A stretch of DNA of 64,000 nt from Candidatus Omnitrophota bacterium (GTDB taxonomy: Bacteria; Omnitrophota; Gorgyraeia; 2-01-FULL-45-10), in the NCBI GenBank assembly GCA_041650935.1, contig JBAZKH010000002.1, positions 64,372 through 128,371 on the forward strand. The letters are read 5' to 3'. This document shows, piece after piece, positions 2,576 through 43,579 of this stretch. The translations under genes were made by a program, and so were the position numbers. Within the stretch, counting starts at the first letter, position 1. Every line of letters begins with the position of its first letter. The notes beneath the pieces are model-generated. The model ran no database searches. It was given only the letters and a program-made list of their open reading frames with translations, and was not told where the DNA came from.

Positions 2576-2649
2576 TGCCCGGTGGTGTAATGGTAGCACG
2601 GCAGCCTCTGGAGCTGCTTGTCTAGGTTCGAATCCTAGCTGGGCAACCA
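2576..2649 (+). tRNA. tRNA-Gln (anticodon CUG)
   Basis: Manual cloverleaf. Acceptor stem TGCCCGG/CTGGGCA with one G-U pair. Anticodon stem GCAGC/GCTGC, loop CTCTGGA (U33, anticodon CTG, purine 37). T-arm CTAGGTTCGAATCCTAG. Discriminator A plus an encoded CCA. Confidence 0.85.
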
Positions 2650-2745
2650 TCCTACTTCGCTCTTAAGGCAGTCAAATAGAGTAGAGCTTCGTAGGATACC
2701 CTACGAAGCACCAGGTTATTTAAGTATTGGAGTGCGAAGTAGGGC
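2650..2745. repeat. Repeat R, copy A. About 95 bp, with terminal inverted repeats CTACTTCGC...GCGAAGTAG and an internal perfect 10-bp hairpin (GCTTCGTAGG-ATAC-CCTACGAAGC). Starts 3 nt after the tRNA-Gln CCA.
   Basis: A 38-nt core TACTTCGCTC(T/C)TAAGGCAGTCAAATAGAGTAGAGCTT is shared with 3726-3763. Both copies are bounded by the same inverted termini. Confidence 0.5.
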
Positions 2746-2848
2746 AACTATCAGTATTCGCTGACACTAGGATTTGAAAAGAGCGAGCACTGAGCGAAGC
2801 GACGACGCCCTTGCTTTTATTATATTTTTGGATATAATATAAGACCCC

Positions 2849-3262
2849 ATGATAATTTACGAAGAAATATTGCGCGAGTTCCAGAAGCAGAAGGTTAAGT
2901 ATATCCTGGTGGGCGGGATTGCGTTCAATCTATTAGGAGGAGAGCGGGCTACTCACGATATGGACGTGATTGTTGAAATGAGCGACGATAACCTGGCGAA
3001 AGCGGTCTCCATACTTAAGCGCGAAGGCTATAAAATAAAGCAACCGGTAGACCCTATGGAAATAGCGAACATAAAAACCCGTAATGATTGGATATACAAT
3101 AAGAATATGAAGGCGTTCAACTTCTACAAAAAAGATGAAATGAAGAAAGTGGATATTATTATAGATTCTCCGGTGCAGTATCAAAAAGCCGAAAAAGACA
3201 AGGTTAAGATTAAGAGCGGCATATTGAATATACCGGCAGGCCCATGGACCAGTTTGATGTAA
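2849..3262 (+). CDS. Hypothetical nucleotidyltransferase-fold protein (MNT/AbiEii-like motif)
   Basis: 137 aa. The motif LVGGIAFNLLGGERATHDMDVIV resembles the Pol-beta nucleotidyltransferase G-G/S...D-x-D signature. A possible 53-aa ORF follows on + at 3303-3464. Confidence 0.35.
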   Translation: MIIYEEILREFQKQKVKYILVGGIAFNLLGGERATHDMDVIVEMSDDNLAKAVSILKREGYKIKQPVDPMEIANIKTRNDWIYNKNMKAFNFYKKDEMKKVDIIIDSPVQYQKAEKDKVKIKSGILNIPAGPWTSLM

Positions 3263-3501
3263 AAACCCTTAAAAATATAGAAAAAATTAGCAAAGAAATA
3301 AGATGAATTTTAGATGGGAGACGGAAAAAGAAAAGTTGTTGCGTTCGATGAAGGTCTCTCCGCAGAAGAAGATGGAGTGGCTTAATGAGATGCACGATTT
3401 TTTGCTTTCTACGGCCACACCTAAAAGGAAAAAGATTTTTTGGAAATTGAGAGGAATTAAGTAAAAACTTCGCACATAACAATTTGGAATATACAGATTT
3501 T

Positions 3502-3586
3502 GCGCGGGTGGTGGAACTGGCAGACACGACAGTTTGAGGGGCTGTTGGGGCAACCCTTGCAGGTTCAAGTCCTGTCCCGCGCACCA
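3502..3586 (+). tRNA. tRNA-Leu (anticodon GAG), type II with long variable arm
   Basis: Acceptor stem GCGCGGG/CCCGCGC. Anticodon stem ACAGT/GCTGT, loop TTGAGGG (anticodon GAG). Long variable arm, T-loop TTCAAGT, discriminator A plus CCA. Confidence 0.85.
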
Positions 3587-3704
3587 TTTTAGTCAGTACG
3601 AGTATGGACTTGAAGCGAGCGAGCGCCGAGCAAAGCGAGGAAAAGCGCTATGCGCGACAGCGAGCGAGGTGAGGTTACGCAGCCGCCTATGGCGGCGTAG
3701 TAAC

Positions 3705-3725
3705 CAAGTCCTGTCCCGCGCACCA
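3705..3725 (+). repeat. Exact 21-bp direct duplicate of the tRNA-Leu 3' end (CAAGTCCTGTCCCGCGCACCA, identical to 3566-3586)
   Basis: Read directly from the sequence. The two copies bracket a 118-bp GC-rich segment (3587-3704). Confidence 0.8.
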
Positions 3726-3811
3726 TACTTCGCTCCTAAGGCAGTCAAATAGAGTAGAGCTTTGCCCTACGAAGCTCTACCCTTATCTAAGCGTCTTAAG
3801 AGCGAAGTAGG
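3726..3811. repeat. Repeat R, copy B. Starts immediately after the duplicated tRNA-Leu 3' fragment and ends 1 nt before tRNA-Glu.
   Basis: Same termini (TACTTCGCTCC...GAGCGAAGTAG) and core as 2650-2745. Internal hairpin GTAGAGCTTTGCCCTACGAAGCTCTAC. Confidence 0.5.
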
Positions 3812-3889
3812 GGCCTCATCGTCTAGCCTGGCCTAGGACATTAGGTTCTCAGCCTAAAGACTGGGGTTCAAATCCCCATGGGGCTACCA
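3812..3889 (+). tRNA. tRNA-Glu (anticodon CUC)
   Basis: Acceptor stem GGCCTCA/TGGGGCT with two G-U pairs. Anticodon stem TTAGG/CCTAA, loop TTCTCAG (anticodon CTC). T-arm TGGGGTTCAAATCCCCA. Discriminator A plus CCA. Confidence 0.75.
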
Positions 3890-4177: not shown

Positions 4178-4558
4178 TTAACTGCTTTTGAGGAGAAAGT
4201 CCCACATCTTGATCTGTTTTTCCCAGAGAGGTTCTTTGACGATATTGCGGATGCTGTATTCGCCGAGAGCGAATAATCGCTTGTTTTTGGATAGTAGAAT
4301 ATCTTTCTGAATCTTCGGACATAACAAAAGAATCTCCATTATCTGGCACATTCGCGCTGGCGTCATATTAAGCCACTCCGATATCTGCCTTGAAGTCATG
4401 CCTGAGTCTTTTTCAAGCATATCCTTTATCTGATAAGCGAGAATCAAGTATTGGCGCAGCTTCGGCTCTTGAGATAGCTTTAGCATGTTGTACTTATGCG
4501 ATTTATGCCGCACAGGTTTTAAGTCTATTTTGAATTCAAACTTCAAGTCAGTTCCCAT
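4178..4558 (-). pseudogene. C-terminal segment of a large serine recombinase, in a different frame from 4570-6144. Either a frameshift (pseudogene or sequencing error) or a programmed shift.
   Basis: The translation (KFEFKIDLKPVRHK...LSQEPKLRQYLILAYQI...ISEWLNMTPARMCQIMEILL) is collinear with the C-terminus of the intact paralogue 32347-33942 (HQFALKLAELKHIPYHRQ...SKEPLIRQNLILAHQI...IAGWIGISPARICHIATMLL). Stop coordinates differ mod 3. Confidence 0.6.
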
Positions 4559-4569
4559 AAAATCCTCGC

Positions 4570-6144
4570 TTATTTTAAGTCCTTTTGCAGTTCTGGATGC
4601 AATAGCAGGTATAGGAATTTAAGTCCGTTGTGGTTTAACGTGAGCGCGATTTTGCCGTCCATAGCGCTATAATCGATCCGTTTAACCATGAGTTTTAATG
4701 CTTTGTATTTTTCCTGAGGGAAAAGTGTCTCCCAGATAGGGGAGTTCATTATAAGCGCCTGCGAAAGTTCGTGATCCGTGATGAGTTTTTGTCCAAGCGT
4801 CATCTCTTTTACACGAGCTTCGGTTAATAAGCGGTCAAAGTCGCCATGTTTAGCAGTTAAATTTTTCAATTGGAGTTCCAGCTCTCTCTTATTACAATCC
4901 GGGTTCTTTAACGATTCTTTTACAGTCTCGATTTTTTCATTTAAGGTACGGGCATCTTTAATAAGAGTTTTCATCTCCTTATTATGAGTTTCAATCTCCT
5001 TTTGGATCTGCTCGTTTACATCGCGCAGCGCTTCTTTGCGCAGTTCCGACTCATTGGCTATTTTTATTAATGAGACCACTACTGCGTTTTCAATATCCTG
5101 CGCATTAACAGATCTTGTAGGGCATCCAGAATAACCGCGCTTATGAGCGTTTAAGCAGACATAGTAGCGGTATTTTCGGCCGTCTTTCTTACTGCTGTAA
5201 GTATGAAACATAAGGCTGTTACAGGCCTTGCAGTGCAGGGCGCTGCCAAGGAGGCCTGTATTAGGCGTATTCTTGGAATAGTCGCGCCTTACGCGGTTAC
5301 CCGCGATAATTTCCTGCGCTTTATTGAATGTTTCATCCGAGACTATGGCATCATGCGAGCCTTTGTAGAGTTCGCCGTTATATTTGACCTTGCCGATATA
5401 GAGCACATTATTTAATATGTGACTGATATTCGATGCCTTGAACCTTATGCCTCCGTGATCGCCTGATTTGGTCGGATGGCGTTTGGTAAGATAGCCTTTT
5501 TCATTCAGTATCTTCGCTACTGATAGCAGGGTTCTCTTTTTCAAGTATAGGTCGAATATCTCGCGTACCAGTTGTGCGTCTTTTTCGTTCACTACAATCC
5601 TATGATTTGCTTTATCGAGATCATAGCCTAATATCGGACGGCCTCCGAGCCATTTGCCTTTCTTACGAGCAGCTCCCATCTTGTCTTTAACACGCTCGCT
5701 GATAATCTCGCGTTCGAATTGGGCGAAGGAAAGAAGGATGTTGAGCGTAAGGCGCCCCATAGAATTATTGGTGTTAAAGGCTTGAGTTACGGATACGAAG
5801 ACGACGTTATTTTTCTCGAAGAGTTCGAGCAGTTGAACGAAATCGAGCAAGGATCGCGATAGCCTATCGACTTTATAGACCACAACGCAGTTAATCTTGC
5901 CTTCTTTAATATCGGCGATTAGCTTTCGCAAGGCAGGCCTTTCGGTATTAGCGCCCGTATAGCCTCCATCATCGTATCGATCCGGTAATAATATCCATCC
6001 TTCGCTCTTTTGGCTATTAATATAACTCTCAGAGGATTCGCGCTGGTTATCCAAAGACGTGAAGTCCCGGTCTAAGCCCTCGCTTGTGGACTTACGCGTA
6101 TAGATCGCGCAGTATAATCGTTTTGTGACAGTCTTTTCAGCCAT
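4570..6144 (-). CDS. Large serine recombinase: resolvase/invertase catalytic domain, recombinase domain and zinc-ribbon region. Truncated relative to its paralogue.
   Basis: N-terminus YCAIYTRKSTSEGLDRDFTSLDNQRE carries the catalytic Ser context. Also VVYKVDRLSRS. Cys-rich segment HCKACNSL...YYVC. 524 aa against 531 aa for the paralogue. Confidence 0.8.
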   Translation of the reverse strand: MAEKTVTKRLYCAIYTRKSTSEGLDRDFTSLDNQRESSESYINSQKSEGWILLPDRYDDGGYTGANTERPALRKLIADIKEGKINCVVVYKVDRLSRSLLDFVQLLELFEKNNVVFVSVTQAFNTNNSMGRLTLNILLSFAQFEREIISERVKDKMGAARKKGKWLGGRPILGYDLDKANHRIVVNEKDAQLVREIFDLYLKKRTLLSVAKILNEKGYLTKRHPTKSGDHGGIRFKASNISHILNNVLYIGKVKYNGELYKGSHDAIVSDETFNKAQEIIAGNRVRRDYSKNTPNTGLLGSALHCKACNSLMFHTYSSKKDGRKYRYYVCLNAHKRGYSGCPTRSVNAQDIENAVVVSLIKIANESELRKEALRDVNEQIQKEIETHNKEMKTLIKDARTLNEKIETVKESLKNPDCNKRELELQLKNLTAKHGDFDRLLTEARVKEMTLGQKLITDHELSQALIMNSPIWETLFPQEKYKALKLMVKRIDYSAMDGKIALTLNHNGLKFLYLLLHPELQKDLK

Positions 6145-6151
6145 AACTCAC

Positions 6152-6661
6152 CTAAAGGTTAAAAAACGCGTATCCATTCCAGTGCGCCCCTGTTATCGCG
6201 CTGGCTACAGCGCCGATAGTCTTATAAAATTTGCCATTATATTCAAAGCCTTTTTCAAGCGCTTTGACGCGAATTTCAGTGCTCTTATAGTTCTTGGTAA
6301 TGATGGTGCCCGGGATAGGGAGCCTTCTATCTCGCGTAATAAGCTGTTTATTGGCGATATCAGGCCGCAGCGTCTTATTATTGATAGGATCAAATTCATT
6401 AACCAGTTCCTTAACCTTGTTATATACCGGTTCCGGAAGGCCGCCGTATTCGATCTCCTGTATCCGATAAGCTATCCTCTGCCACAGATACGTCTTATTA
6501 TTCGAAGTCGCCTTTTTGCCGTCAAATAGCTCCGAATATCGCGCTTGAAGCTCCGGAACAGCCATCTCTTTTAAGGCCAATATTTGCTCTAAAATCGCCT
6601 CATTCATTGCCAAAACCTCCTCTCTAACCTCATTACATATAGGCCATACTAACTGCCGCAA
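6152..6661 (-). CDS. DUF2924-family protein (frequent partner of large serine recombinases)
   Basis: 169 aa. The C-terminus RLPIPGTIITKNYKSTEIRVKALEKGFEYNGKFYKTIGAVASAITGAHWNGYAFFNL is nearly identical in pattern to 33951-34394. Sits immediately upstream of the recombinase in both copies. Confidence 0.65.
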   Translation of the reverse strand: MRQLVWPICNEVREEVLAMNEAILEQILALKEMAVPELQARYSELFDGKKATSNNKTYLWQRIAYRIQEIEYGGLPEPVYNKVKELVNEFDPINNKTLRPDIANKQLITRDRRLPIPGTIITKNYKSTEIRVKALEKGFEYNGKFYKTIGAVASAITGAHWNGYAFFNL

Positions 6662-6817: not shown

Positions 6818-8446
6818 ATGAGTAGATATAATGGTTGGTCGAGAGAAAAACTAATAGCCGAGATTAAGCGCCTAAAGAAGGGTAAGAAATTCGGGTTAGT
6901 TTGGGAAGATAAAATCGAAGACGTGGCGGAACTTTGCAAAACAAAACTACCTGTCTTAGTAGAAGTTGAGGATAAAGAAATCTCCAGCGATTCCCATGGC
7001 TCGGCTAATATTCTAATCGAAGGTGATAATTACCACGCCCTATCGGTTCTTAATTACACACATAAAGAAAAAATTGATTTTATCTATATCGATCCGCCGT
7101 ACAATACTGGTAATAATGACTTTATCTATAATGACAAATTTGTTGATGCCGAAGACCCGTATAGGCATAGTAAATGGATAGCTTTTATGGAAAAACGTCT
7201 AAGGTTAGCAAGGCCTCTTTTGAAAAAAGACGCAGTAATTTTTATTAGCATTGATGACAATGAGCAATCACAGTTGAAATTATTATGTGATGAGGTATTT
7301 AATGAGAAAAATTTTGTTTCCACGATAATTTGGCAGAGAGCATATAGCCCAAAAAATCAGTCCAAAAGAATTTCCGTTGATCATGAATATATCTTGGCAT
7401 ATGCAAAAAATATTGAATTTTTGGATTTCAAGTTACTCCCAAGAACTGAAAAAATGAATGCGAGATATAAGAATCCAGATAAAGATCCTCGTGGCAATTG
7501 GAAATCCGGTGATTTGGTGGCAAACGAAGAACGAAGAAACGGCCATTATATTATTACTGGACCTCATGGTAATAAATTTGATGCTCCTCCCGGGAAGCAT
7601 TGGAGTTTCGGAAAAGAAACGATGATGGGATTTCTGAAAGATAATCGACTTTATTTTGGAAAAGACGGGAAAGCATTTCCTTCTCTGAAACAATTTTTAA
7701 ACGAAGTCCAGCAGGGCAGGAAGGCTTCAACACTGTTTTTCCATGATCAAGCTGGTCATAATGATGAGGCGAAAAAAGAGCTAAAAGATTTTTTTGAACA
7801 ATCAGATGATTTATTTTCTACCCCAAAACCAACACGCTTGATAAAGCAACTTATGAGATTGCTAAATAAAGATGATGCGATTATTTTAGATTTCATGGCT
7901 GGCTCAGGTACAACAGCGCAAGCCGTTTTAGACCTCAACAAAGAAGATCGCGGTAATCGCCAATTTATTCTTTGCACTAACAACGAAAATAATATTTGTT
8001 CGAATGTTTGTCATCCGAGAATTAAAAAAGTTATAGTCGGCTATAAAGATATTAAAGGTGAAAAAGTCGAAGGTTTTGGTGGAAATCTAAAGTATTTCCG
8101 AACAGACTTTGTCGACGCCGATCCGACAGACAAAAATAAAAAGAAATTGACCAAGATGGCCACGGGAATGCTTTGCCTCAAGGAAGGCACTTTTGAGAAG
8201 ATAATAAACAAAAAAGCCTTCAAGATTTATAAAAATACTAACCATTACACCGGCATTGTTTTTGATCAAATGGCGATATCTGATTTCAAGGAAGCCAGTG
8301 CCAAGATGAAGGGTAAATTTAACGTCTATGTGTTCTCGCTTGGTGATGATTCTTTTGAGGAAGAATTTGATGACATTAAGCAGAAGGTTAAATTGTCCCC
8401 TATCCCCGAAGTCATTTTGCGGGTTTACAGGAGAATTTTCAAATAA
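6818..8446 (+). CDS. mod: Type III restriction-modification methyltransferase (Mod), N6-adenine/N4-cytosine DNA methyltransferase
   Basis: 542 aa. DPPY motif in FIYIDPPYNTGNNDF. C-terminal FxGxG-like MAGSGTT. Stop overlaps the start of the downstream res gene (TAATG). Confidence 0.8.
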   Translation: MSRYNGWSREKLIAEIKRLKKGKKFGLVWEDKIEDVAELCKTKLPVLVEVEDKEISSDSHGSANILIEGDNYHALSVLNYTHKEKIDFIYIDPPYNTGNNDFIYNDKFVDAEDPYRHSKWIAFMEKRLRLARPLLKKDAVIFISIDDNEQSQLKLLCDEVFNEKNFVSTIIWQRAYSPKNQSKRISVDHEYILAYAKNIEFLDFKLLPRTEKMNARYKNPDKDPRGNWKSGDLVANEERRNGHYIITGPHGNKFDAPPGKHWSFGKETMMGFLKDNRLYFGKDGKAFPSLKQFLNEVQQGRKASTLFFHDQAGHNDEAKKELKDFFEQSDDLFSTPKPTRLIKQLMRLLNKDDAIILDFMAGSGTTAQAVLDLNKEDRGNRQFILCTNNENNICSNVCHPRIKKVIVGYKDIKGEKVEGFGGNLKYFRTDFVDADPTDKNKKKLTKMATGMLCLKEGTFEKIINKKAFKIYKNTNHYTGIVFDQMAISDFKEASAKMKGKFNVYVFSLGDDSFEEEFDDIKQKVKLSPIPEVILRVYRRIFK

Positions 8447-10662
8447 TGCAGCTTAAAAATTATCAAATCAACGCTATTGGCGAGTTATTAAGTAAGGCCA
8501 AAAAGCTGTTTACCTATGCCGATAATAAAAAGCTAATATTCAAGGCTCCTACCGGCTCTGGTAAGACCATAATGGTGGCCGAGTTTTTGAAGCAGCTATG
8601 TGAGGATAAGGAGATTAAATTTCCTCTTGCCTTTATCTGGACGGCCCCACGGCAATTGCACGAGCAAAGCAAGAATAAGCTGGATTACTATTACGAGCCG
8701 AGCCGGGCCCTGCGTTGTTCTTTCTTTGAGGACTTGGACGATAAAAAGATCGACCAAAATGAAATTTTGTTCTTTAACTGGGAGAGTATTAACAAAGAAG
8801 ATAATATCTACATTCGTGATAACGAGCAGGATAATAATCTGTTAAATGTTGTCGCTCAGACCAAAGAAGAAGGCCGGACGATAATTCTTATTATAGATGA
8901 AAGTCACCATCATGCCACAAGCGAAATATCACAAAACTTAATTCGAGATATTGGACCCAAGCTAACGATCGAGGTATCCGCCACCCCGGTCCTAGAAAGC
9001 CCGGATGAGATTGTTTCCATCCAGTTAGAGGACGTCAAGGTTGAAGGGATGATCAAGAAAGCCGTTATCCTTAACCCAGAGTTTAATAATGTACTAAAAG
9101 ATGAAAAAATTCAGAGTCAACTAAGTAAGCAATCCGAAGAGTTGGTTATTGAGCTTGCCCTAAAAAAAAGGAAAATCCTGAAAGAGGCCTACCAAAAGGA
9201 AAAGATCGATATCAACCCTCTGGTGCTTGTGCAATTGCCGGATCGGCATACCAGTCTCGAAGACGTCATAAAAGATAAAGTTATAGCGATTCTAAAGGAT
9301 AAGCACAAGATAACAACCAAAAACGGTAAACTGGCAATCCATCTTTCCGGTGACCACAAAAATTTAGAGAACATTTCAAGAGCGGACAGCGAGACGGAAG
9401 TTTTAATATTTAAGCAGGCACTCGCTCTGGGTTGGGATTGTCCTCGGGCGCAAATATTGGTTCTATTTCGTGATTGGAAAAGCATTGTTTTTTCAATCCA
9501 GACGATCGGCAGGATTATGCGTATGCCCGATCCCGATTATGGCCACTATGCAAATGAAATTCTCAATCACGGATATATATTCACCAATCTGGACGATATA
9601 GCAATTCAAGAGGACATTGCCAGAGACTACATCACGATTCATATATCAAGACGTCGAGGCGATTATTCGCCTTTGGGTATGCCTTCCTGCCATTCAAAAA
9701 GGCATCGTGAAAAAACAAGATTATCGCTATTCTTTATTAAAGTCTTTTCGCAAGAAGCCGACGCTTATGGTCTTGCTAAAAAGATACAGAAGAAATCAAA
9801 AGGTTTGAGTGTAAATTTTATCTCAGATTTCAAGGCGGAGAGCGTTGACGCTTTGGTGGGACAGACGATTTCTGGTGATAAGGGCATCAAAATGACCGGA
9901 TTTGATCTGCAAAAGTATTTCGATTATTTCATCAGAAAAAATCTTGCTCCGTTTCATCCGGAGGATCGATCCATTGGCAGGCTAAAAGAAGCGATCTACT
10001 ATTTTTTTGACTACACGATGGGTATTAAGTATGAGGATGATCAGGAAGCTATTGTCGAAATGGTGCTCAGCGAGCACAATATACAGCATTTTATCAATGT
10101 TATAGATCAGACCAAGGAAAAGTATAGAGACCATGTATCGAAGAGGGAAAAAGAGCTTGATTATGATGAAAAATGGGATGTGCCGGAAAGCATCAGTTTT
10201 AGCTCTCAATGCGTCCTCGAGCATCAGAAGAAATCAATTATGCAGCCGTTTTATAACAATGGGCGGTCGGCTCTTGAAACGGCATTTATTAAATATCTGG
10301 AAAGCCCCAATAAGGTGGCTTGGTGGTTCAAAAATGGTGATCGGGATGCCGTATATTTTGCCGTTCCCTATGAAGAAGGTAGCGATAAGAAGCCTTTTTA
10401 CGTTGATTTTATTATTCGTATGAAAGATGGCTCTATCGGTCTTTTTGATACCAAATCAGGTCTTACAAGGCAAGTAGCAGGCCCAAAAGTAGACGGACTT
10501 AATGCCTATATTCACGAGCAGAATAAAAAAGGCAAAAATCTATTCGGTGGAATCGTTACCAATACCGATGCTCGCAATTATACCGGCCGATGGATTTATT
10601 TTAATAAGGACGCAAAAGTTTTTACGAATAGCTTTGATAACTGGGAAAATTTGGTTTTATAG
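8446..10662 (+). CDS. res: Type III restriction enzyme Res subunit (SF2 helicase plus endonuclease)
   Basis: 738 aa. Walker A APTGSGKT. DExH-like IIDESHHHA. Translationally coupled to mod. Confidence 0.75.
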   Translation: MQLKNYQINAIGELLSKAKKLFTYADNKKLIFKAPTGSGKTIMVAEFLKQLCEDKEIKFPLAFIWTAPRQLHEQSKNKLDYYYEPSRALRCSFFEDLDDKKIDQNEILFFNWESINKEDNIYIRDNEQDNNLLNVVAQTKEEGRTIILIIDESHHHATSEISQNLIRDIGPKLTIEVSATPVLESPDEIVSIQLEDVKVEGMIKKAVILNPEFNNVLKDEKIQSQLSKQSEELVIELALKKRKILKEAYQKEKIDINPLVLVQLPDRHTSLEDVIKDKVIAILKDKHKITTKNGKLAIHLSGDHKNLENISRADSETEVLIFKQALALGWDCPRAQILVLFRDWKSIVFSIQTIGRIMRMPDPDYGHYANEILNHGYIFTNLDDIAIQEDIARDYITIHISRRRGDYSPLGMPSCHSKRHREKTRLSLFFIKVFSQEADAYGLAKKIQKKSKGLSVNFISDFKAESVDALVGQTISGDKGIKMTGFDLQKYFDYFIRKNLAPFHPEDRSIGRLKEAIYYFFDYTMGIKYEDDQEAIVEMVLSEHNIQHFINVIDQTKEKYRDHVSKREKELDYDEKWDVPESISFSSQCVLEHQKKSIMQPFYNNGRSALETAFIKYLESPNKVAWWFKNGDRDAVYFAVPYEEGSDKKPFYVDFIIRMKDGSIGLFDTKSGLTRQVAGPKVDGLNAYIHEQNKKGKNLFGGIVTNTDARNYTGRWIYFNKDAKVFTNSFDNWENLVL

Positions 10663-10688
10663 AATAATATGATTAGATAAGGAAAATT

Positions 10689-10835
10689 ATGGATAAGAAA
10701 TCGCATACATCGCTAGAAGTGTTTTTTAATTCTCTTGAGGAGAAGGATAAAGAGCTATTGGTAGATTATATGAAAGATCGTAAATATGAAAGTCTTTCTA
10801 GTAAATTCGACACGCTTTTAAAGACGAAAAAATGA
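10689..10835 (+). CDS. Possible 48-aa ORF translationally coupled (ATGA overlap) to the downstream ATPase
   Basis: Start ATG 10689 with an upstream AAGGA-like RBS. The TGA stop overlaps the ATG of 10832. Below the ORF-track length cutoff. Confidence 0.25.
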   Translation: MDKKSHTSLEVFFNSLEEKDKELLVDYMKDRKYESLSSKFDTLLKTKK

Positions 10836-13219
10836 AAATTACTAAACTCACAATAAGAGGATTTAGAGGATTTAACGAACAACAATCAATACCATTAGAT
10901 AGTAATGTTATCTTAGTTTATGGTTTGAATGGTTCAGGGAAGAGCAGTTTTACAGAGGCCTTGGAATGGCTATTTTTTGGTGAAATATCTAGGCAGCGGC
11001 TATCTCGTTGTCGTTCTGAATATCAATACGAGGAATATTTAAAGAACCTTTTTTATAATGATACCGGAAATCCTTTTGTCGAGATAGAAGGTATAATTAA
11101 TGGTAAAAATATAAAGATAAAGAAAGAAATAAATCCAGATGGCGAAAAACTCTTCATAGATGATAAAGAATCCCCAGATCTTAATGCCATCAATCTCAAT
11201 TTAGAGAGCTATTTCAGACCAATGCTTGCTCAAACCGAAATAAAAGCTCTGGTAGATTCTGAGCAAAAAGATCGATGGGAGCAGCTTTCAAGCATTTTAG
11301 GCCAAGATGAACTTACTAACCTTAGGGAAAACCTGATATCTCTTAGAAATAATAAGAAAAAGGACGAAAATTATAAAAAACAAGAGTTGAAATGGCAATC
11401 TATTCTAAGTGATATAACTGAACTTCAATCTCTCTCGCAACTTAACCGTGCTATTCAGGATTTAGATAGCATTAATTTGCTTTCCGGAATAAAAAATATT
11501 ACCGGAAGTTCTACAAATAATCTTCAAGATATTCTTAAAGAAGTTAGAATTAGGCAAAAAAGCCTTCTGAATACCGAAATAGGCAAGCGTGTAACCGAAA
11601 TATCCTATCTAGACGCTATTGAATTATCGAAATATTTAAAAGAATTATCGGATAGTTTTACGAAGCTTGAGGAGCATTTAATAATATCAACGAAAGAAGG
11701 GCATGATCATGATTATTTAGATTTTCTAAAAAATGGATTAGCTTTTGTGAAATTACCAGAATGCCCATATTGTTTGGAAAAAACATTAAATCAAAAACGC
11801 TTGGATGATATCAATGAAAAATTGGAATTAGGCAAGGAGTCTCGAGAAGCAAAAAACCAGTTCGATCAGCTCAAGAATTCCATAAAATTATGGATACAGT
11901 CTTTTCCCGAAAGCATTAAGTCGTATCTTCCATCTCAACAAGAGTTAAAAATAATATCACAGAAATTCCTTGATATAGAAGAAGCAGAATTGGCAGTTAA
12001 GGTTCAGAACATCGAGAAAGAAATAGCTACTACAATTGCAAGTCTTAATAAAGAATTAAAAAGCGCTATTGATGAATTTCATGGTTATCTTGAAATAAGA
12101 TATTTTCATAAAGGTACTGTGGATGAAAATATACCAAAAAAACTATCTGACATCATACAAAAAATAATATCTCAGCAGAATGACATTATTACGAAATGGG
12201 AAGATTTAAAAATAGAAATAGCGAAAAGCTTATCTATTACAGGAGTCGTAAACCAAGAGGAAATAAAAAAGTGGTTAGCTTTGGAAAAAATAGCCTCTTT
12301 TTTCATTAACGCAGTAGAGTTTATTAAATGTGCAAGCTTACTTAAACAAATCGATGTGATACAGGCCAAGTTAGAGCAATATGAGAAAAGTGAAATTACT
12401 AGACTTTTACAAGAACATGCTACTGAAATAAAAGCGTACTATGAAAAACTAAACCCAGGAGATAAAATTCAGTTTTCTGGAATAGAAGTAAAAGGTGGAG
12501 TGAGGCGTCAGGCTAAGCTTAGCGCGGAAGCTTTTGGTAAAGTTGTTAATCCAGTTACCTTTTTTAGCGAGGCACATACCAATAGTTTAGCATTGAGTAT
12601 TTATTTTCCCCAAAGAGTAGATCGAAACAATACTTGGGATGTTGTTATACTGGATGATCCTGTTCAATCAATGGATGAAAATCATTCACAAGCATTGATT
12701 GATATTTTGGTCGGTATATCTACGAAGAAACAAGTGATAGTGTTGACTCATTCAAAATCATTCTTCCGTCGTTTGTGTGCTCGCTTTGGGCATTTGAAAC
12801 CAAAGATATTTTTATTCCATAATAATGATGAGAAAGGTCCATCTATTTGTCTTGATAAAGGAGAAACTCTTTCCTATTTGTCATTAATTGAGGAAAATTG
12901 TAAAAAGGGAGACCTTAGATCATTAGAAACTGCTTCTCAACATTTACGGAAATCCATAGAGTCTGTATGTTTAGAGTTTCTATTAGATAAAGGAACAAGT
13001 TTTAGCAAAGCACAGAAACTACAAAATGCTGGTTTGCAATCTTCTTTTGCAGAATGCGAAAAGTTAGGTTTGCCTGCGTCTGAAACAGGCAAGCTAAAAA
13101 GTGTATTGGATACTTCACACAGTGATTCACATGCTTGGAGTATTGCTGATACAACTGTCGGTACTATACAAGTTGGAAAAAAGTACGTCCAAGATATTTA
13201 TGATGCATACTTAAAATAA
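10832..13219 (+). CDS. Rad50/SbcC/SMC-like ABC ATPase with a long coiled-coil insert and about 190-aa C-terminal extension. Candidate defence ATPase.
   Basis: 795 aa. N-terminal Walker A GLNGSGKSS. Signature-like FSEAHTNSLALS, Walker B VVILDDPVQSMD and H-loop VLTHS near the C-terminus. About 500 aa of predicted coiled coil lie between. Confidence 0.6.
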   Translation: MKITKLTIRGFRGFNEQQSIPLDSNVILVYGLNGSGKSSFTEALEWLFFGEISRQRLSRCRSEYQYEEYLKNLFYNDTGNPFVEIEGIINGKNIKIKKEINPDGEKLFIDDKESPDLNAINLNLESYFRPMLAQTEIKALVDSEQKDRWEQLSSILGQDELTNLRENLISLRNNKKKDENYKKQELKWQSILSDITELQSLSQLNRAIQDLDSINLLSGIKNITGSSTNNLQDILKEVRIRQKSLLNTEIGKRVTEISYLDAIELSKYLKELSDSFTKLEEHLIISTKEGHDHDYLDFLKNGLAFVKLPECPYCLEKTLNQKRLDDINEKLELGKESREAKNQFDQLKNSIKLWIQSFPESIKSYLPSQQELKIISQKFLDIEEAELAVKVQNIEKEIATTIASLNKELKSAIDEFHGYLEIRYFHKGTVDENIPKKLSDIIQKIISQQNDIITKWEDLKIEIAKSLSITGVVNQEEIKKWLALEKIASFFINAVEFIKCASLLKQIDVIQAKLEQYEKSEITRLLQEHATEIKAYYEKLNPGDKIQFSGIEVKGGVRRQAKLSAEAFGKVVNPVTFFSEAHTNSLALSIYFPQRVDRNNTWDVVILDDPVQSMDENHSQALIDILVGISTKKQVIVLTHSKSFFRRLCARFGHLKPKIFLFHNNDEKGPSICLDKGETLSYLSLIEENCKKGDLRSLETASQHLRKSIESVCLEFLLDKGTSFSKAQKLQNAGLQSSFAECEKLGLPASETGKLKSVLDTSHSDSHAWSIADTTVGTIQVGKKYVQDIYDAYLK

Positions 13220-13279
13220 TTTATTTGGATGAATCGGAATCGAGAACGGTCCAGAAGGTGCCATTTCATAAATTAAACT

Positions 13280-14011
13280 ATGAAACCCGGCGACATACTA
13301 CTATTTAAGGCAGAAAAAGATTTAGCCTCAAAACTTATCGCGTGGGGCACTAACAGTCTCTATAGTCATGTTGCCATTTGCGTCTCGGAGGAGATGAATC
13401 TTGCTATCGAATCTATCCCCGGCGGAGGCGTCCGTGGCCGTGACATAAGAAAGATCCAGGAAACCTATGACGTCTATAGCATTAAAGACGGATATAGTTT
13501 CGATCTGCATAGCACAATATCTTATCTGGTAGATAAGTTAAACGCGAAGTACGATACCTGGGGTATCACATTTCTTGGTATTTTAAAATTTTTTATCAGA
13601 ATAGGCTGCCCCTTGAGACCCATAGCAAATAAGTGGCAAAAGGATCGAGACTATTTCTGTTCCGAGCTTTGTTATGAGGCGTTTTATCGCGGCGGAGGGC
13701 TCGATATAGTGCCAGCCGTTTCCGAAGCAGATGTAACTTCCCCGGGTGATATCGCAAAGAGCCAGATTGTGGAGTTAATAGAGAGTAAAAAGGGAAAGGA
13801 GCCGGCCATGGGATGGTATATGAAGATGGTGGAGAGAGTAAAGGCGCTTGATACCCCGATGTTTATGCTATTTGTAAGCGTTAAGGCGCTCGGTGGTTTG
13901 GCGATCGGTATCATAATCGCGCCTTATGTTGGCAGGATAGGGTGGTGGGTACTACTTGCGGCTATTATTATATCTATCCCCCTAATGCTTAAAATATTTA
14001 AAAAGACATAA
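13280..14011 (+). CDS. YiiX/YaeF-like permuted papain-fold amidase (Peptidase C92 / DUF830 family) with a C-terminal transmembrane anchor
   Basis: 243 aa. N-terminal GDILLFKAEKDLASKLIAWGTNSLYSHVAI (family GDILL...S..I...T.S.YSHV motif). Downstream Cys in CSELCYEAF. The C-terminal 60 aa are strongly hydrophobic (two predicted TM helices). Confidence 0.5.
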   Translation: MKPGDILLFKAEKDLASKLIAWGTNSLYSHVAICVSEEMNLAIESIPGGGVRGRDIRKIQETYDVYSIKDGYSFDLHSTISYLVDKLNAKYDTWGITFLGILKFFIRIGCPLRPIANKWQKDRDYFCSELCYEAFYRGGGLDIVPAVSEADVTSPGDIAKSQIVELIESKKGKEPAMGWYMKMVERVKALDTPMFMLFVSVKALGGLAIGIIIAPYVGRIGWWVLLAAIIISIPLMLKIFKKT

Positions 14012-14264: not shown

Positions 14265-15026
14265 ATGATTACAAAGCATAAGCTTGCGGAAAGAATAAAA
14301 AAGATGCGAGAAGATAGGGAGCTCTCACAAGAGGAGCTTGCTGCCAAGCTGGGAGTGCCTCGTCCTTCAATATCTCAGATCGAATCAGGACAAAGGGATA
14401 TAAGCAGTATAGAGCTGGCAAAGATTGCAAAGATATTCGAAATCTCAATGGATGATTTATTAAGCCCAGACCTAGATGGAAAAGAACGTATGGATATGAA
14501 AAGAGAGCCAAAAATGCCTAAATTCAACAAAGAGAAGTTTAAGCAAGTGCTGCTGTATATCTTAGATAAGTGCGGAGCCAAGGCTAACGTTGGAGAAACA
14601 GTATTATATAAGCTGCTTTATTTTTCTGACTTTAACTATTATGAACTATTCGAAGACTATTTGACAGGAGCAGCTTATAGAAAGATAAGTTACGGGCCAG
14701 CCCCTTGTGATTTTCAGCATATTGTTCAGGAGATGATAGATGAAGGCAAGTTAAAGAAGGTCACAACAGAGTATTATGGCAAGCCTCAGAAGAAATATTT
14801 ACCGCTAGTCAATGCTGATATAAATGAATGGAAATGGAGCGCACGGGAAAAAGAAGTAATTGATAACGTCATTGAGAGATTGTCTGCTATGGATGCCACC
14901 ACAATAAGCGAATTTTCTCATGAGGATATCCCGTGGGAGGTAACCAAGGACAAGGAAATAATAGACTACGATACCGTCTTCTATAGAAAACCGCCCTTTT
15001 CAGTGAGAGCATACCCCGAGGAATGA
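14265..15026 (+). CDS. XRE-family HTH fused to a Panacea/SocA-like (DUF4065) domain. Putative antitoxin.
   Basis: 253 aa. N-terminal HTH LSQEELAAKLGVPRPSISQIESGQRDIS. The C-terminal region VLYKLLYFSDFNYYELFEDYLTGAAYRKISYGPAP matches the DUF4065 pattern. Confidence 0.55.
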   Translation: MITKHKLAERIKKMREDRELSQEELAAKLGVPRPSISQIESGQRDISSIELAKIAKIFEISMDDLLSPDLDGKERMDMKREPKMPKFNKEKFKQVLLYILDKCGAKANVGETVLYKLLYFSDFNYYELFEDYLTGAAYRKISYGPAPCDFQHIVQEMIDEGKLKKVTTEYYGKPQKKYLPLVNADINEWKWSAREKEVIDNVIERLSAMDATTISEFSHEDIPWEVTKDKEIIDYDTVFYRKPPFSVRAYPEE

Positions 15027-15030
15027 CATC

Positions 15031-15375
15031 ATGGAATTTACATCTGTGGCTGAATTCGACTCGGAGTTTGATAAGCTCCTCAAAAAATACCGCAGTTTAG
15101 AAGAAGACCTAAAAGTCCTAAAAGCCGTTCTGGTGAAATACCCTCGTGGATACGAACCTTTTGCATTACGGATACCCGGCCTTGGCATTGAAACAGAGAT
15201 CTATAAGGTTAAGCACTTTCGGTGTAAGGCATTGAACAGAGGATCACGCAGCGGCATCAGGGTAATATATGCGTACCTAGAAGCTAAACAAGAAATCAAG
15301 TTCGTGGAAATATACTATAAAGAAAAAGGCGACGTAGACTGTAACAAGGAGAGGATTCAGAAGTATTTTACATAA
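15031..15375 (+). CDS. Putative RelE/ParE-superfamily toxin partnered with the Panacea antitoxin
   Basis: 114 aa, 4 nt downstream of the antitoxin. The C-terminal GIRVIYAYLEAKQEIKFVEIYYK resembles the RelE/ParE R-V-I-Y core. Confidence 0.4.
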   Translation: MEFTSVAEFDSEFDKLLKKYRSLEEDLKVLKAVLVKYPRGYEPFALRIPGLGIETEIYKVKHFRCKALNRGSRSGIRVIYAYLEAKQEIKFVEIYYKEKGDVDCNKERIQKYFT

Positions 15376-32346: not shown

Positions 32347-33942
32347 CTAATTTTGCTGGGACTTAAGGAGGTTATTCCAGATCTCTTGCTGCCTATTCCA
32401 GTCTAATTCCTGCGTTATATCGCGCAGCTTGTATTCAGGGATGCTGGACAACGCTTTGTTGTCAGACAGGAGTATCTCTTCCTGGATTCGTGGCGACATG
32501 AGGAGCATAGTCGCGATGTGGCAGATCCTGGCTGGACTTATGCCGATCCAACCAGCGATTTCTTTTAAAGTGCATCTTTTTTCATGCACGATTTGGTCTA
32601 TCTGATGAGCCAGGATCAGGTTCTGCCGTATGAGCGGTTCTTTGCTTATCGCGGCCTGCTGGCGATGATAAGGTATATGCTTTAATTCAGCCAGCTTTAG
32701 CGCGAATTGGTGGCTTTTATCGCCATCATGGAGCACTATCTCAAGAGTTCCGTTAACCGCGTCGTAATGCGCAACCTTGGCGATTGATTTAAGGACTGGT
32801 ATTTTTGCTTCCAGGGTTAGCGATTCCCAGACCTTGGCCTCAATCCGCGGATCTTTGCAGACTGTCCTTAAAAATTCCATAAACTTATTCTCAATAGCTT
32901 GAGCTGAAATGAGACGCGTAGGACAGCTCTTATAGCCACGCTTCTGGGCGTTCATACAAAGGTAGTAATGGTACTTATTAGTGCCTTTCTTGCTATATAT
33001 GTAGTACATAGTGCTATCGCAGGCCTTGCAGCGCAGGATACTGTTTAATAAGCCAGTATTCGTCACTACGCCAGCGACCTTGCGCTCACGACGGTTATTG
33101 GCCAGTATTTCTTGAGCCTTTTGGAATATATCGTCGGGTAATATGCGCTCTTGCTCGCCTTGATAAAGCTGCCCGGCATGATGAACTTTACCGATATAGA
33201 ATGGATTTTTAACTATCGATTGAATGCTCGTACTTTTAAACTTTACACCGCCGGATTTCCGGCCTTCCAGGGTAGCGTAGCTTTTTGTCATGCGACTCTT
33301 CTCATTTAGCGCTACTGCTACTGAAAGGAGAGATCGCTTCTCAAGATAAAGATCGAATATCTCTTTTACGATCTCGGCCTCTTTTGGATTTATGACAAGC
33401 TTTCGGTTTATCTTGTCGATATCATAGCCTAAAGGCGGCCTGCCACCGACCCACTTACCTCTCTTTTTGGAAGCAGCCATCTTGTCGCGTGTTCGTTCGC
33501 TTATAATTTCACGTTCGAACTGTGCAAAAGAGAGGAGTATATTTAAGGTAAGGCGCCCCATCGAGGTATTGGTGTTGAAAGCCTGTGTCACAGATACAAA
33601 TGTTACGTTGTTCTGTTCAAAGAACTCTAAGAGTTGAGTAAAATCAAGAAGCGAGCGTGATAATCGATCTACTTTATAAACCACGACACAATTAATGCCA
33701 CCTTTTTTAATGTTAGTCATGAGTTTTTGCAGGGCAGGTCGTTCGGTATTCGCTCCTGTATAGCCAGGATCATCGTAGCACTCAGACAACGTTATCCAGC
33801 CTTCCGACTTTTGGCTTTGGATATAGCTCTCTGCCGATTCGCGCTGGTTATCTAACGACGTAAATTCCTGCGCTAACCCTTCAGTAGTCGAGACGCGTGT
33901 ATATATGGCGCAATTAATCTTTTTCTTTTCTTGTTTTTCCAT
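32347..33942 (-). CDS. Large serine recombinase, intact (531 aa)
   Basis: N-terminal INCAIYTRVSTTEGLAQEFTSLDNQRE. VVYKVDRLSRS. Recombinase domain. Cys cluster CKACDSTMYYIYS...YYLC. Paralogue of 4178-6144. Confidence 0.85.
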   Translation of the reverse strand: MEKQEKKKINCAIYTRVSTTEGLAQEFTSLDNQRESAESYIQSQKSEGWITLSECYDDPGYTGANTERPALQKLMTNIKKGGINCVVVYKVDRLSRSLLDFTQLLEFFEQNNVTFVSVTQAFNTNTSMGRLTLNILLSFAQFEREIISERTRDKMAASKKRGKWVGGRPPLGYDIDKINRKLVINPKEAEIVKEIFDLYLEKRSLLSVAVALNEKSRMTKSYATLEGRKSGGVKFKSTSIQSIVKNPFYIGKVHHAGQLYQGEQERILPDDIFQKAQEILANNRRERKVAGVVTNTGLLNSILRCKACDSTMYYIYSKKGTNKYHYYLCMNAQKRGYKSCPTRLISAQAIENKFMEFLRTVCKDPRIEAKVWESLTLEAKIPVLKSIAKVAHYDAVNGTLEIVLHDGDKSHQFALKLAELKHIPYHRQQAAISKEPLIRQNLILAHQIDQIVHEKRCTLKEIAGWIGISPARICHIATMLLMSPRIQEEILLSDNKALSSIPEYKLRDITQELDWNRQQEIWNNLLKSQQN

Positions 33943-33950
33943 CAGACCTC

Positions 33951-34394
33951 CTATAAATTAAAGAACAGATATCCGTTCCAATGCGCTCCGGTTATCTCCT
34001 TAGCGATTGCGGATAATGTCTTATAAATCTTTCCGTTATACTCGAAACCTTTCTCAAGTACCTTTACTCGGTACTTAGCGTCATTATATTCCTTAGTAAT
34101 CACAGTTCCCGGAATAGGAAGACGCTTATCCTTGGTACTGGCTGGCAGACATGAAGGCGGCCTATCCGGCCTGAGAGCTTTGTTATTGATAGGATCATAC
34201 TCCTCAATAAGCGCCGAAAGTCGCCCATTGGCCTTGTCTGATAGACTGCCTTGCTCGCGCTCCTGTAGCCTATAAGCGATCTTACGCCAGAGATAGAGCC
34301 TATGGTTACTGGTGGCATCCTCGCCATAAAGCTCCTTATATCTCTCGAGAAGCTCTTCAACAGGCGCACTTTTAAGTGTCATTATCTCGCTCAT
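33951..34394 (-). CDS. DUF2924-family protein (recombinase partner)
   Basis: 147 aa. KRLPIPGTVITKEY...GFEYNGKIYKTLSAIAKEITGAHWNGYLFFNL, paralogous to 6152-6661. Confidence 0.65.
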   Translation of the reverse strand: MSEIMTLKSAPVEELLERYKELYGEDATSNHRLYLWRKIAYRLQEREQGSLSDKANGRLSALIEEYDPINNKALRPDRPPSCLPASTKDKRLPIPGTVITKEYNDAKYRVKVLEKGFEYNGKIYKTLSAIAKEITGAHWNGYLFFNL

Positions 34395-34538
34395 TTTGGC
34401 CCCCTTTCCTTAATACATATATAGCCATAGGTTTTTCGAAATAGCAAGTTATATTAGAGATAAGCACAATATACAGTAGGAATAATTTAGTGTTGGCAAC
34501 ACCAGATTTATGTATCATTAAAATTTATTACTTTTTAC

Positions 34539-34567
34539 TTGACAGAATTATTGCCATGTGATATATT
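34539..34567 (+). promoter_or_regulatory. Sigma70-type promoter for the Type I restriction-modification operon: TTGACA, 17-nt spacer, extended -10 TGaTATATT
   Basis: -35 TTGACA at 34539-34544. Spacer GAATTATTGCCATGTGA. -10 TATATT at 34562-34567 preceded by TG. Confidence 0.5.
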
Positions 34568-34573
34568 TTCTGC

Positions 34574-35185
34574 ATGGTTAAAGATGATATAGACATGACA
34601 GAAAGAACGAAGCCTTTAAAACTATTATCCAAAGAGATATTTTCAGGCGCTCCATTATATAGTACGGAGAAAATGGAAGAAGGCGCGGATGGTCTTCCCT
34701 TGATAAATATTAAGGATGTAGCCGAAGGAACTATTAGACCTGATACGTGTCGGCGGTTAATACCTGGGGATTTTAAGAACTTAGCTAGATATTTAGTATA
34801 TCCGAAAGATGTCGTTGTTACCTGCAGAGGTAGCCTATTGAAAGCCGCTGTTATTCCCGAGAACATCGGCAAGGCTCTAATAACATCAAACTTAATAGCC
34901 GTACGCCTAGACGAGTTAGTGTTACCAGAATTTTTGGCCATATATCTGAATATAAAGGAAGGCCAAAGAAAAATTCTTACGAGCGCAACTTCCGCTGATA
35001 CGCGCCTCGTGCTTACAGTTTCAAACATAGAAGAGTTTGAGATTCCTGTTTTGCCGATCAATTTACAGAAACAGATAATAGATTTAACAGCGTCTTCTGT
35101 TGAACAGTATAGATTGAGTTTGGATGCTGCAGTCACAAGGAAAAAAATTACCGAGCAGATTATAGAAGAACTAATAAAGAAATAG
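34574..35185 (+). CDS. hsdS: Type I restriction-modification specificity subunit, half-size (single target-recognition domain)
   Basis: 203 aa. One target-recognition domain followed by the conserved C-terminal helical region (LQKQIIDLTASSVEQYRLSLDAAV...). Lies directly upstream of hsdM. Confidence 0.55.
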   Translation: MVKDDIDMTERTKPLKLLSKEIFSGAPLYSTEKMEEGADGLPLINIKDVAEGTIRPDTCRRLIPGDFKNLARYLVYPKDVVVTCRGSLLKAAVIPENIGKALITSNLIAVRLDELVLPEFLAIYLNIKEGQRKILTSATSADTRLVLTVSNIEEFEIPVLPINLQKQIIDLTASSVEQYRLSLDAAVTRKKITEQIIEELIKK

Positions 35186-35196
35186 GGAGGATAAAA

Positions 35197-37951: not shown

Positions 37952-37961
37952 GAGGTGTGAA

Positions 37962-39032: not shown

Positions 39033-39042
39033 AGGATAAGCC

Positions 39043-42842: not shown

Positions 42843-43579
42843 TAACGGAAAAAGGAACAATAGCATTCGGGAGCCATAATATAGACTTCTTCATACGACG
42901 AAGCAGCAGAAGAAGGACTATAAGTCTTTTTGTCGATCCCCACGAAGGAGTATTTCTGAGAGCGCCGCTGGGACCATCAGTTGATTCGCTAATAAAATTG
43001 GTGCATTCTAAAGCTGACTGGATCATAAAGAAGCAGAAGCAAATCGAAGAAGTGGGTGAGTTTCTTCCTAAGAGAGAGTTTGCTAATGGCGAAACATTTT
43101 TATATCTTGGGCGGCAGTTTCGTCTTAAAGTTTTAAGATTAGATAAAGCATCTTCAAGCAAAGTGAAATTTACGAATGGATGCTTTATAGTTTCTATCAA
43201 TGATGAATATACAGAAGTGGGCAAAAAGAGAGTCATGAGGAAGTTACTAACCAATTGGTACAAGAGGCATGCTCGCAACGCATTATTTAATAGGATTAAA
43301 ATTTACGCTAAGAAGCTAGATCTTGCACCAGTGGAGTTTGCTTTAGCAAACCAGAGCAAGCGGTGGGGCAGTTGTAGCCATAAAGGCAAGGTCAGATTCA
43401 ATTGGCATATTATTATGGCTCCTCTATCTCTAATTGATTACGTTGTCGTTCATGAGCTCTCACACCTAAAGCAACCAAACCACTCGCAAGAATTTTGGAA
43501 ATTATTAGGCAACGTAATGCCTGATTATGAAATAAGGCGCGATCGACTTCGCAAAGAAGGGCATAAGTTTTATTTTTAA
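42839..43579 (+). CDS. DUF45/YgjP-like (M48-family) zinc metallohydrolase, commonly co-transcribed with hsdR
   Basis: 246 aa. HExxH motif VVHELSHLKQPNHSQEF. Overlaps the hsdR stop. Confidence 0.65.
   Translation: MITEKGTIAFGSHNIDFFIRRSSRRRTISLFVDPHEGVFLRAPLGPSVDSLIKLVHSKADWIIKKQKQIEEVGEFLPKREFANGETFLYLGRQFRLKVLRLDKASSSKVKFTNGCFIVSINDEYTEVGKKRVMRKLLTNWYKRHARNALFNRIKIYAKKLDLAPVEFALANQSKRWGSCSHKGKVRFNWHIIMAPLSLIDYVVVHELSHLKQPNHSQEFWKLLGNVMPDYEIRRDRLRKEGHKFYF

Follow-up and report, generated by a model that had tools for sequence, protein, structure and literature searches.

The two-gene cassette and its small partner gene

We analysed a stretch of 64,000 nucleotides (nt) from Candidatus Omnitrophota bacterium (contig JBAZKH010000002.1 of assembly GCA_041650935.1, positions 64,372 to 128,371 of the forward strand), referred to below as the window. 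At 10689-13219, on the plus strand, it carries a two-gene cassette that consists of an open reading frame (ORF) of 48 amino acids (aa) and the gene of a 795-aa ABC ATPase. The gene of a C92-family amidase follows. A first-pass annotation, made from the letters alone, had put forward the ATPase and the amidase as an undescribed defence pair and had referred to the 48-aa ORF in a side remark. In the present analysis the small ORF turned out to be the conserved partner of the ATPase in place of the amidase. The features of the locus are listed below.

10689-10835, plus strand: gene of the 48-aa partner protein, for which two helices are predicted (supported by protein-level conservation and a hidden Markov model, HMM)
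10832-13219, plus strand: 795-aa ABC ATPase, Rad50/LmuB-like, to which a HEPN domain is fused at the C-terminus in an RloC-like arrangement
10832-11311, plus strand: ABC head, N-terminal half (aa 1 to ~160), with Walker A and Q-loop
11312-12508, plus strand: long helical (coiled-coil) insert between the head halves, aa ~161-559 (from the alignment)
11762-11773, plus strand: zinc-hook-like CPYC, aa 311-314, halfway along the coiled coil
12509-12862, plus strand: ABC head, C-terminal half (aa ~560-677), followed by a beta-hairpin linker
12863-13216, plus strand: HEPN-fold domain, aa ~678-795
13280-14011, plus strand: C92 amidase, outside the conserved cassette

The TGA stop codon of the small ORF overlaps the ATG start codon of the ATPase gene in the form of ATGA (aaaaATGAaaatt), as had been described at first pass. 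The 48-aa protein has no match in Pfam, PADLOC or NCBIfam. It is conserved at the protein level across loci with ATPases of 28-92% identity. Among the 58 full-length family loci, which encode 40 distinct proteins, an ORF of 45-71 aa overlaps the ATPase start in 39 of the 40; the overlap ranges from 1 to 26 nt and is most commonly 11 nt. The aligned small proteins share a two-helix pattern, ..LLEEF..L......Y.....LS..FD.., and are mostly acidic, with a median isoelectric point of 4.9. A control by position alone, in which every upstream ORF with an overlap counts, did not discriminate in GC-rich genomes, and the small ORFs were therefore clustered by conservation. When the six-frame ORFs of 180 loci were searched with the small-protein HMM, 69 matches were obtained, all of which end at an ATPase start. 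The sole flagged exception among them, locus L087, has a partial ATPase match, and the small-protein match there is actually adjacent to it. The HMM matched 57 of the 58 core loci, and in the remaining one, L014, the motif is found inside a longer ORF. These results show that the 48-aa gene is the true conserved partner of the ATPase, obligately and translationally coupled to it.

Architecture of the ATPase

The motifs of the ABC head are arranged as had been read at first pass: Walker A (GLNGSGKS, aa 31-38) and the Q-loop (LAQ, aa 132-134) are N-terminal, whereas the signature-like motif (FSEAH, 578), Walker B (VVILDDP, 604) and the H-loop (LTHS, 638) come after the long helical insert. The Pfam families SMC_N and AAA_13 both scored above cutoff, and the profile of the ATPase family (67 full-length homologues) matched helical-bundle chains of the PDB over positions ~338-518. 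In the middle of the insert, C311, P312 and C314 are invariant in 34 aligned homologues of 28-84% identity, as in the zinc hook of the Rad50 type; the hooks of RloC proteins read CxFC (PMC2610378). Dimerisation is predicted from such an antiparallel coiled coil capped by a CPxC hook. Among the PADLOC models, those of LmuB matched the protein with E-values of 4.4e-42 (PDLC03865) and 1.5e-28 (PDLC03859), the latter over the full length. The description of the ATPase as an LmuB/Rad50-like protein located among defence genes is borne out; its restriction-modification (R-M) and recombinase neighbours are listed further below.

The resemblance of the head motifs and the zinc hook to those of Rad50/SbcC, together with the label 'SbcCD ATPase subunit' carried by some homologues, might also be taken to mean that the protein is a housekeeping DNA-repair member of the SMC family, i.e. 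an orthologue of SbcC, Rad50, RecN or RecF. We regard this as barely credible. The NCBIfam models were far below their cutoffs (RecF 38/172, Rad50 23/1000, SMC 27/567), no SbcD/Mre11 gene is found next to the ATPase gene, the protein has a fused HEPN domain, and the family is rare and patchy, being scattered over unrelated phyla and located on plasmids and other mobile elements. An identity as a RecN/SbcC housekeeping orthologue, the outcome that the first-pass annotation had named as fatal to its proposal, is thus effectively excluded.

The C-terminal HEPN domain

The last ~140 residues of the ATPase have no match in Pfam. Within this region Arg706 (nt 12947-12949, in LRK[SA]IE, an R-x3-E motif) and His767 (nt 13130-13132, preceded by Ser) are invariant, and the active-site-like pattern reads R706-x3-E710-x56-S766-H767, the spacing between Glu and His being 52-57 residues in the family. 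RloC proteins are defined by the ABC motifs, a CXXC hook in the coiled-coil insert and the motif Arg-X3-Glu-X36-52-His, often with a Ser before the His (PMC2610378); in the Geobacillus RloC the triad is R692, E696 and H737 (Davidov & Kaufmann 2008, PMC2610378). As a classical protein of the RloC type, we used WP_016921274 (764 aa) of the Methylocystis parvus plasmid pMpar-2, the gene of which stands directly after those of an Eco57I-type methylase and a PaeR7I endonuclease. This protein carries CPFC and LRPILE...x53...H, is matched by Pfam AAA_13 with 115 bits through profile position 691 of 713, and scores 228 bits with the PADLOC model PDC-S06. When the family profile was aligned with WP_016921274 by hhalign, a probability of 96.5% and an E-value of 7.5e-10 were obtained over positions 510-777, with the R, E and H residues opposite the R, E and H of the reference. 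The C-terminal domain of the ATPase belongs to the HEPN superfamily. The first-pass statement that the ATPase is free of any fused nuclease was wrong, given the invariant R706 and H767 in a HEPN-fold domain that takes up the last ~120 residues. With such a domain at its C-terminus, the ATPase would be a self-contained sensor-effector of the RloC type.

An exhaustive search with the profile of the C-terminal domain yielded 65 clusters (at 50% identity) among 1.84 billion proteins, nearly all of them proteins of ~790-815 aa with the domain at the C-terminus. In the clade of ~44% identity to the ATPase of the window (P0038-P0050), the residue in the column of E710 is Ala, Gly or Cys; both R706 and H767 are invariant there too. 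Either the Glu of R-x3-E is dispensable in the ATPase family, or the chemistry is altered in this clade.

The classical RloC-type protein corresponds to the PADLOC candidate PDC-S06. A plasmid hit (H14) was rejected as a reference, as it is the ATPase of an 'ABC-three component system' and not RloC, and a 746-aa RloC gene listed in Table S1 was not found in the Shewanella ANA-3 plasmid, of which 1-62 kb were scanned. In locus L176 on plasmid pS19501 of Shewanella baltica OS195, which was retrieved solely through weak similarity of the ABC head, an annotated 'ABC-three component system' (a component, middle component 1 and a 1059-aa ATPase) adjoins a 445-aa HEPN-domain protein.

Cassette boundaries and mobility

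The extent of the cassette is seen most clearly from a comparison of the window with locus L001. Positions 10684-13219 of the window and 5854-8388 of L001 are 91% identical in nucleotide sequence, and outside this segment no DNA similarity was detected on either side, except for the recombinase at 68%. At the downstream end the similarity stops exactly at the ATPase stop codon. The type III R-M genes that stand beside the L001 cassette have no detectable DNA similarity to the Mod and Res genes of the window. Since the identity is confined to the small ORF and the ATPase gene, an exchange at the level of the cassette between otherwise different islands is indicated, and the two genes form a self-contained, horizontally mobile unit. 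The genes that follow the ATPase gene in its relatives are as different as the list below indicates (identities are those of the ATPases).

L001, 92% identical: 116-aa ORF
L182, 92% identical: DUF4917 and SIR2_2
a relative 91% identical: 49-aa ORF, then ParB-methylase and terminase
a relative 84% identical: HEPN_AbiV
a relative 65% identical: DUF2779
a relative 53% identical: 207-aa ORF
a relative 44% identical: type III Mod/Res

Different genes in the slot downstream of the cassette suggest that the element is phage-like and has a defence slot of varying content; in the group of loci L001, L182, L183 and L184, a ParB_N-N6_N4 methylase follows in three and a terminase-like gene in one. No third gene recurs among the neighbours in 38 loci, where 89 of the 126 neighbour proteins are singletons. 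The Pfam and PADLOC summaries of the neighbours in these loci likewise contain no LmuA. The neighbour families that do recur are DNA methylases, serine recombinases, PD-(D/E)XK, ThsB-TIR, BglII, HigB, ResIII and PD-Lambda-2, a set characteristic of defence islands and mobile elements. A search of the 3.5-kb region against Escherichia coli genomes and plasmids gave no match at the DNA level.

Genomic context in the window

The genes around the cassette and the amidase gene are as follows.

50-2475: GluRS/GlnRS
2576-3889: three tRNAs (tRNA-Gln/Leu/Glu cluster)
4570-6144, minus strand: large serine recombinase
6152-6661, minus strand: DUF2924 protein
6818-8446, plus strand: type III Mod
8446-10662, plus strand: type III Res
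10689-13219, plus strand: the two-gene cassette (48-aa ORF and ATPase)
14265-15026: antitoxin-type protein of 253 aa with HTH_3 and SocA/Panacea domains
15031-15375: 114-aa ORF without a family match, beginning 4 nt after the SocA/Panacea gene
from 16090: LOG/SLOG, then two-component regulators

The setting described at first pass was confirmed, with the type III Mod and Res genes upstream, the HTH-SocA/Panacea antitoxin gene downstream and the serine recombinase with the DUF2924 gene at 4570-6661. The region of the cassette is the GC minimum of the window (0.33, compared with ~0.40 nearby and 0.52 at the flanks). The drop in GC content begins after the tRNA cluster, which suggests integration beside that cluster. 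The island marked by the serine recombinase (4178-6661) begins directly after the tRNA cluster (2576-3889), beside the GluRS/GlnRS genes. The SocA/Panacea gene and the 114-aa ORF (14265-15375) are probably a toxin-antitoxin pair of the Panacea type. Further along the window lies a second large serine recombinase gene (32347-33942, minus strand) adjoining a small ORF (33951-34394, minus strand), and beyond it a type I R-M HsdR gene (39843-42842); this segment (32347-43579) looks like a second recombinase-marked R-M island.

The position of the cassette directly behind a type III system invites comparison with PrrC, which is encoded beside the EcoprrI R-M system that may control it. The Res/Mod enzyme would then silence the nuclease until a phage anti-restriction function releases it, and the functional unit would comprise Mod, Res, the small protein and the ATPase. 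Only 26 nt separate the end of Res from the start of the 48-aa ORF on the same strand, and a site scan of the window detected no terminator and no convincing promoter between Res, the cassette and the amidase gene. Distinct type III systems also adjoin the cassette in L001 and L007, and type II or IIS systems do so in L183 and in the Methylocystis locus. There is precedent in PrrC/EcoprrI itself and in the linkage of 8 of 72 rloC genes to R-M systems of type I or III (PMC2610378, Table S1), and a survey of HEPN proteins describes PrrC and RloC as ABC-ATPase-HEPN fusions that are 'often found in R-M operon'. In most core loci, however, the four genes closest to the cassette, two to either side, do not include one for R-M (N6_N4_Mtase was counted 4 times and ResIII 2 times among 123 neighbours), and the R-M genes beside the L001 cassette, which is 91% identical, have no detectable DNA similarity to those of the window. 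The finding of non-homologous R-M genes beside a near-identical cassette means that the cassette moves independently of any particular R-M system. A PrrC-like dependence on R-M is therefore possible at this locus but not general, and as an account of the cassette we consider it improbable.

PrrC differs in architecture as well. Both are ABC ATPases with a C-terminal HEPN domain, which in PrrC is an anticodon nuclease, but PrrC has ~400 aa, lacks a coiled coil and a zinc hook, and is nearly always encoded inside a type I hsd locus, whereas the protein of the window has a coiled-coil insert of ~400 aa, stands beside a type III system, and is associated with R-M only facultatively.

The downstream amidase

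The ORF at 13280-14011 encodes 243 aa and begins 60 nt past the ATPase stop codon. Its assignment to the C92 amidases was upheld. The Pfam match to PF05708 is borderline (28 bits against a cutoff of 27), while H30 and C127 (in DYFCSELC) are invariant across 21 homologues, and the family profile matched PDB entry 3KW0 with an E-value of 2e-5, the H30 and C127 motifs being aligned, and YiiX (2IF6) weakly. The same two structures were the only significant fold matches in Foldseek. As the AlphaFold2 model used there is poor (pLDDT 58), these matches serve as corroboration only. With the YiiX/YaeF/YycO enzymes, which are permuted NlpC/P60 proteins of the C92 family (2IF6, 3KW0), the amidase shares the permuted His...Cys order and the SH and FCSE motifs; it differs from them by a C-terminal tail with two transmembrane helices. 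The two C-terminal hydrophobic helices noted at first pass are present at residues 194-242. This lineage-specific tail was found only in the copy of the window and in one sequence 96% identical to it, and is missing from ~390 homologues of 62-81% identity, mostly of ~168 aa. The amidases form a very tight clade, which comes mainly from metagenome-assembled genomes labelled Omnitrophota. PADLOC gave no match for the amidase of the window.

The proposal that was most prominent at first pass, in which the ATPase senses infection and the membrane-anchored amidase acts on the envelope as the effector of a two-gene system, did not survive. The two genes are co-oriented with a gap of 60 nt and no terminator-like site between them, the His/Cys dyad of the amidase is intact, and its homologues are often found among defence genes. 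Against this, a tblastn search of 168 loci that encode relatives of the ATPase, with flanks of 6 kb, did not detect the amidase in any of them, and the amidase homologues never adjoin an ATPase of this kind. Close relatives of the ATPase, at 92, 91, 84, 65, 53 and 44% identity, carry other genes downstream, and the DNA homology ends at the ATPase stop codon; moreover, the ATPase already has an effector domain of its own. Synteny across genomes was the check that the first-pass annotation had itself named in advance, and as synteny is lacking, with the adjacency unique to the locus of the window, the pair is refuted as a functional defence system; what chance we still allow it is minimal. The homologues of the amidase are standalone genes in unrelated neighbourhoods, for example with SMODS, S_4TM and ApeA-HEPN (HEPN_Apea), or with ResIII...PLDc_2. 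The amidase clade recurs in variable and often defence-like neighbourhoods (L169-L175). The C92 amidase is an unrelated neighbour of the cassette, and the flagged pair is not worth pursuing as a novel system.

Sister clades

Three sister clades, with ATPases 20-29% identical to that of the window, each have a conserved overlapping small ORF of their own.

actinobacterial clade, 14 loci: the small ORF and the ATPase gene overlap by 11 nt
clade of Proteobacteria, Bacteroidota and Salinibacter, 13 loci: an overlap of 20-29 nt in most
third clade, 4 loci: an overlap of 20 nt

Their ATPases retain the layout of ~800-820 aa: CP[FML]C is located at ~310-335, Walker B contains DDP, and R-x3-E...H is found at the C-terminus. 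In PADLOC they are, like the protein of the window, nearest to LmuB (4e-42; between 1.5e-28 and 4e-34 over the full length), and their matches to PDC-S06 are weak. The loci of clade A are found under L054-L125, those of clade B under L069-L121 and those of clade C under L071-L111, with L177 in addition; the taxa represented are Solirubrobacterales and other Actinobacteria, Proteobacteria, Dyadobacter, Salinibacter, Chloroflexota and Bathyarchaeia. On the Nitrosospira plasmid pNRS527-2 such a pair is annotated in RefSeq, with WP_213539971 (65 aa) overlapping WP_213539970 (817 aa). No publication on the small partner or on an LmuB-HEPN fusion was found in the literature covered, which did not include the ABC-ATPase classification of Krishnan et al. 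2020.

Discussion

Taken together, the domain architecture, the invariant hook and Arg/His residues, the coupling of the two genes, the sharp boundaries of the cassette and its setting among defence and mobile genes lead us to the view that 10689-13219 is probably an RloC-like, Lamassu-related abortive-infection system, composed of a Rad50-like sensor, a HEPN RNase and an obligate small partner. RloC is counted among the known defence systems, and the ATPase of the window shares with it the size of ~800 aa, the ABC head split by a coiled coil, the central CxxC, the C-terminal HEPN-class domain with Arg-x3-Glu...(Ser)His, and an occasional linkage to type I/III R-M systems and to recombinases or transposases. 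The cassette differs from RloC in its obligate overlapping upstream gene, in the spacing of Glu and His (52-57 as opposed to 36-52) and in that the Glu is not invariant. RloC is an anticodon nuclease of tRNA that excises the wobble nucleotide; for the family of the window, cleavage of tRNA is predicted by analogy.

A number of observations weigh against this view. One clade has A, G or C in place of Glu710, the Glu-His spacing is at or beyond the published range of RloC, and the canonical HEPN motif R-x4-6-H is absent from the C-terminal domain. The profile of this domain retrieved only its own family, and no RloC or PrrC, from 1.84 billion representatives searched with HMMER; the domain alone aligned weakly with WP_016921274 (hhalign 21%, E-value 1e-3), albeit in the same register. 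Pfam AAA_13 reached only 40 bits on the ATPase of the window and ended at profile position 583 of 713, leaving the C-terminal domain uncovered, and in PADLOC the ABC part was nearer to LmuB than to the RloC-type PDC-S06 (2e-13). Finally, classical RloC is a single gene in published descriptions, a small ORF is lacking at the Methylocystis locus, and the small protein of the window has no detectable homologue of known function.

Some of these points fit better with a compact derivative of Lamassu, in which an LmuB protein would have its effector, the HEPN domain, fused to the C-terminus, the small ORF would encode a minimised LmuC in contact with the coiled coil or DNA, and DNA ends would be sensed as in Lamassu. 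In the Lamassu literature, LmuC is encoded immediately upstream of LmuB, just as the SbcD C-terminal domain is encoded upstream of SbcC, and long LmuB proteins retain a single CxxC motif. The cassette is like Lamassu in its LmuB-like ATPase, in the small gene at the position of LmuC, in its occurrence in defence islands, and in the logic of a sensor with a toxic effector. The best PADLOC matches of the protein of the window and of all sister clades are LmuB, with PDLC03859 matching over the full length, and the PDC-S06 matches are much weaker. What makes such a derivative rather unlikely is the lack of a separate LmuA or any conserved third gene, the effector being fused to the C-terminus of the ATPase instead, and the nature of the small ORF, which at 45-71 aa is 3-4 times shorter than LmuC and without similarity to the LmuC models of PADLOC; the fused HEPN domain with R-x3-E...S-H is, in addition, a hallmark of RloC. 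This explanation overlaps with the RloC-like one, as the mechanism would be the same and the ancestry different.

For the RloC-like system that we favour, the following course of events may be proposed by analogy. The dimeric Rad50-like part would bind DNA and ATP and sense a DNA state linked to infection; candidate triggers include DNA ends, DNA damage, and an adjacent restriction system that has failed or been inhibited. ATP-dependent licensing might then set the HEPN domain free. The RNA that it would cut is most likely tRNA, in the anticodon loop, so that translation would come to a halt and the infection would be aborted. The small protein, whose synthesis is coupled to that of the ATPase, presumably binds it, either as a silencing, antitoxin-like subunit or as a coiled-coil/DNA adaptor comparable to LmuC or the C-terminal domain of SbcD. 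An antitoxin-like role is made plausible by RnlA-RnlB and HEPN-MNT, which likewise combine a HEPN RNase with a small co-expressed partner; in the cassette, however, the HEPN domain forms one protein with a large Rad50-like sensor, and the small protein is unlike known antitoxins. In many classical type II toxin-antitoxin pairs the antitoxin gene is the upstream one, as is the small ORF here.

It is tentatively suggested, somewhat short of even chances, that the cassette and its sister clades constitute a distinct, uncatalogued immune system of two components that stands between Lamassu and RloC. The small protein would be an essential subunit of it, acting either as a minimal adaptor like LmuC or the C-terminal domain of SbcD, or as a gatekeeper of the HEPN nuclease. 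RloC has hitherto been treated as a single-gene system, and a sister superfamily with a coupled partner of ~50 aa would offer a testable handle on how a nuclease of the RloC type is regulated, be it by an inhibitor or by an adaptor. The cassette may also represent an evolutionary bridge between Lamassu, with its separate effector, and RloC, with a fused one. Partners of 45-71 aa are easily overlooked by gene callers, and because the LmuB profiles match strongly where no LmuA is present, annotation pipelines may report such loci as orphan or partial Lamassu. If the suggestion is true, whole clades of the system in Actinobacteria, Proteobacteria, Bacteroidota, bacteria of the candidate phyla radiation and archaea would have escaped notice or been scored wrongly as orphan LmuB.

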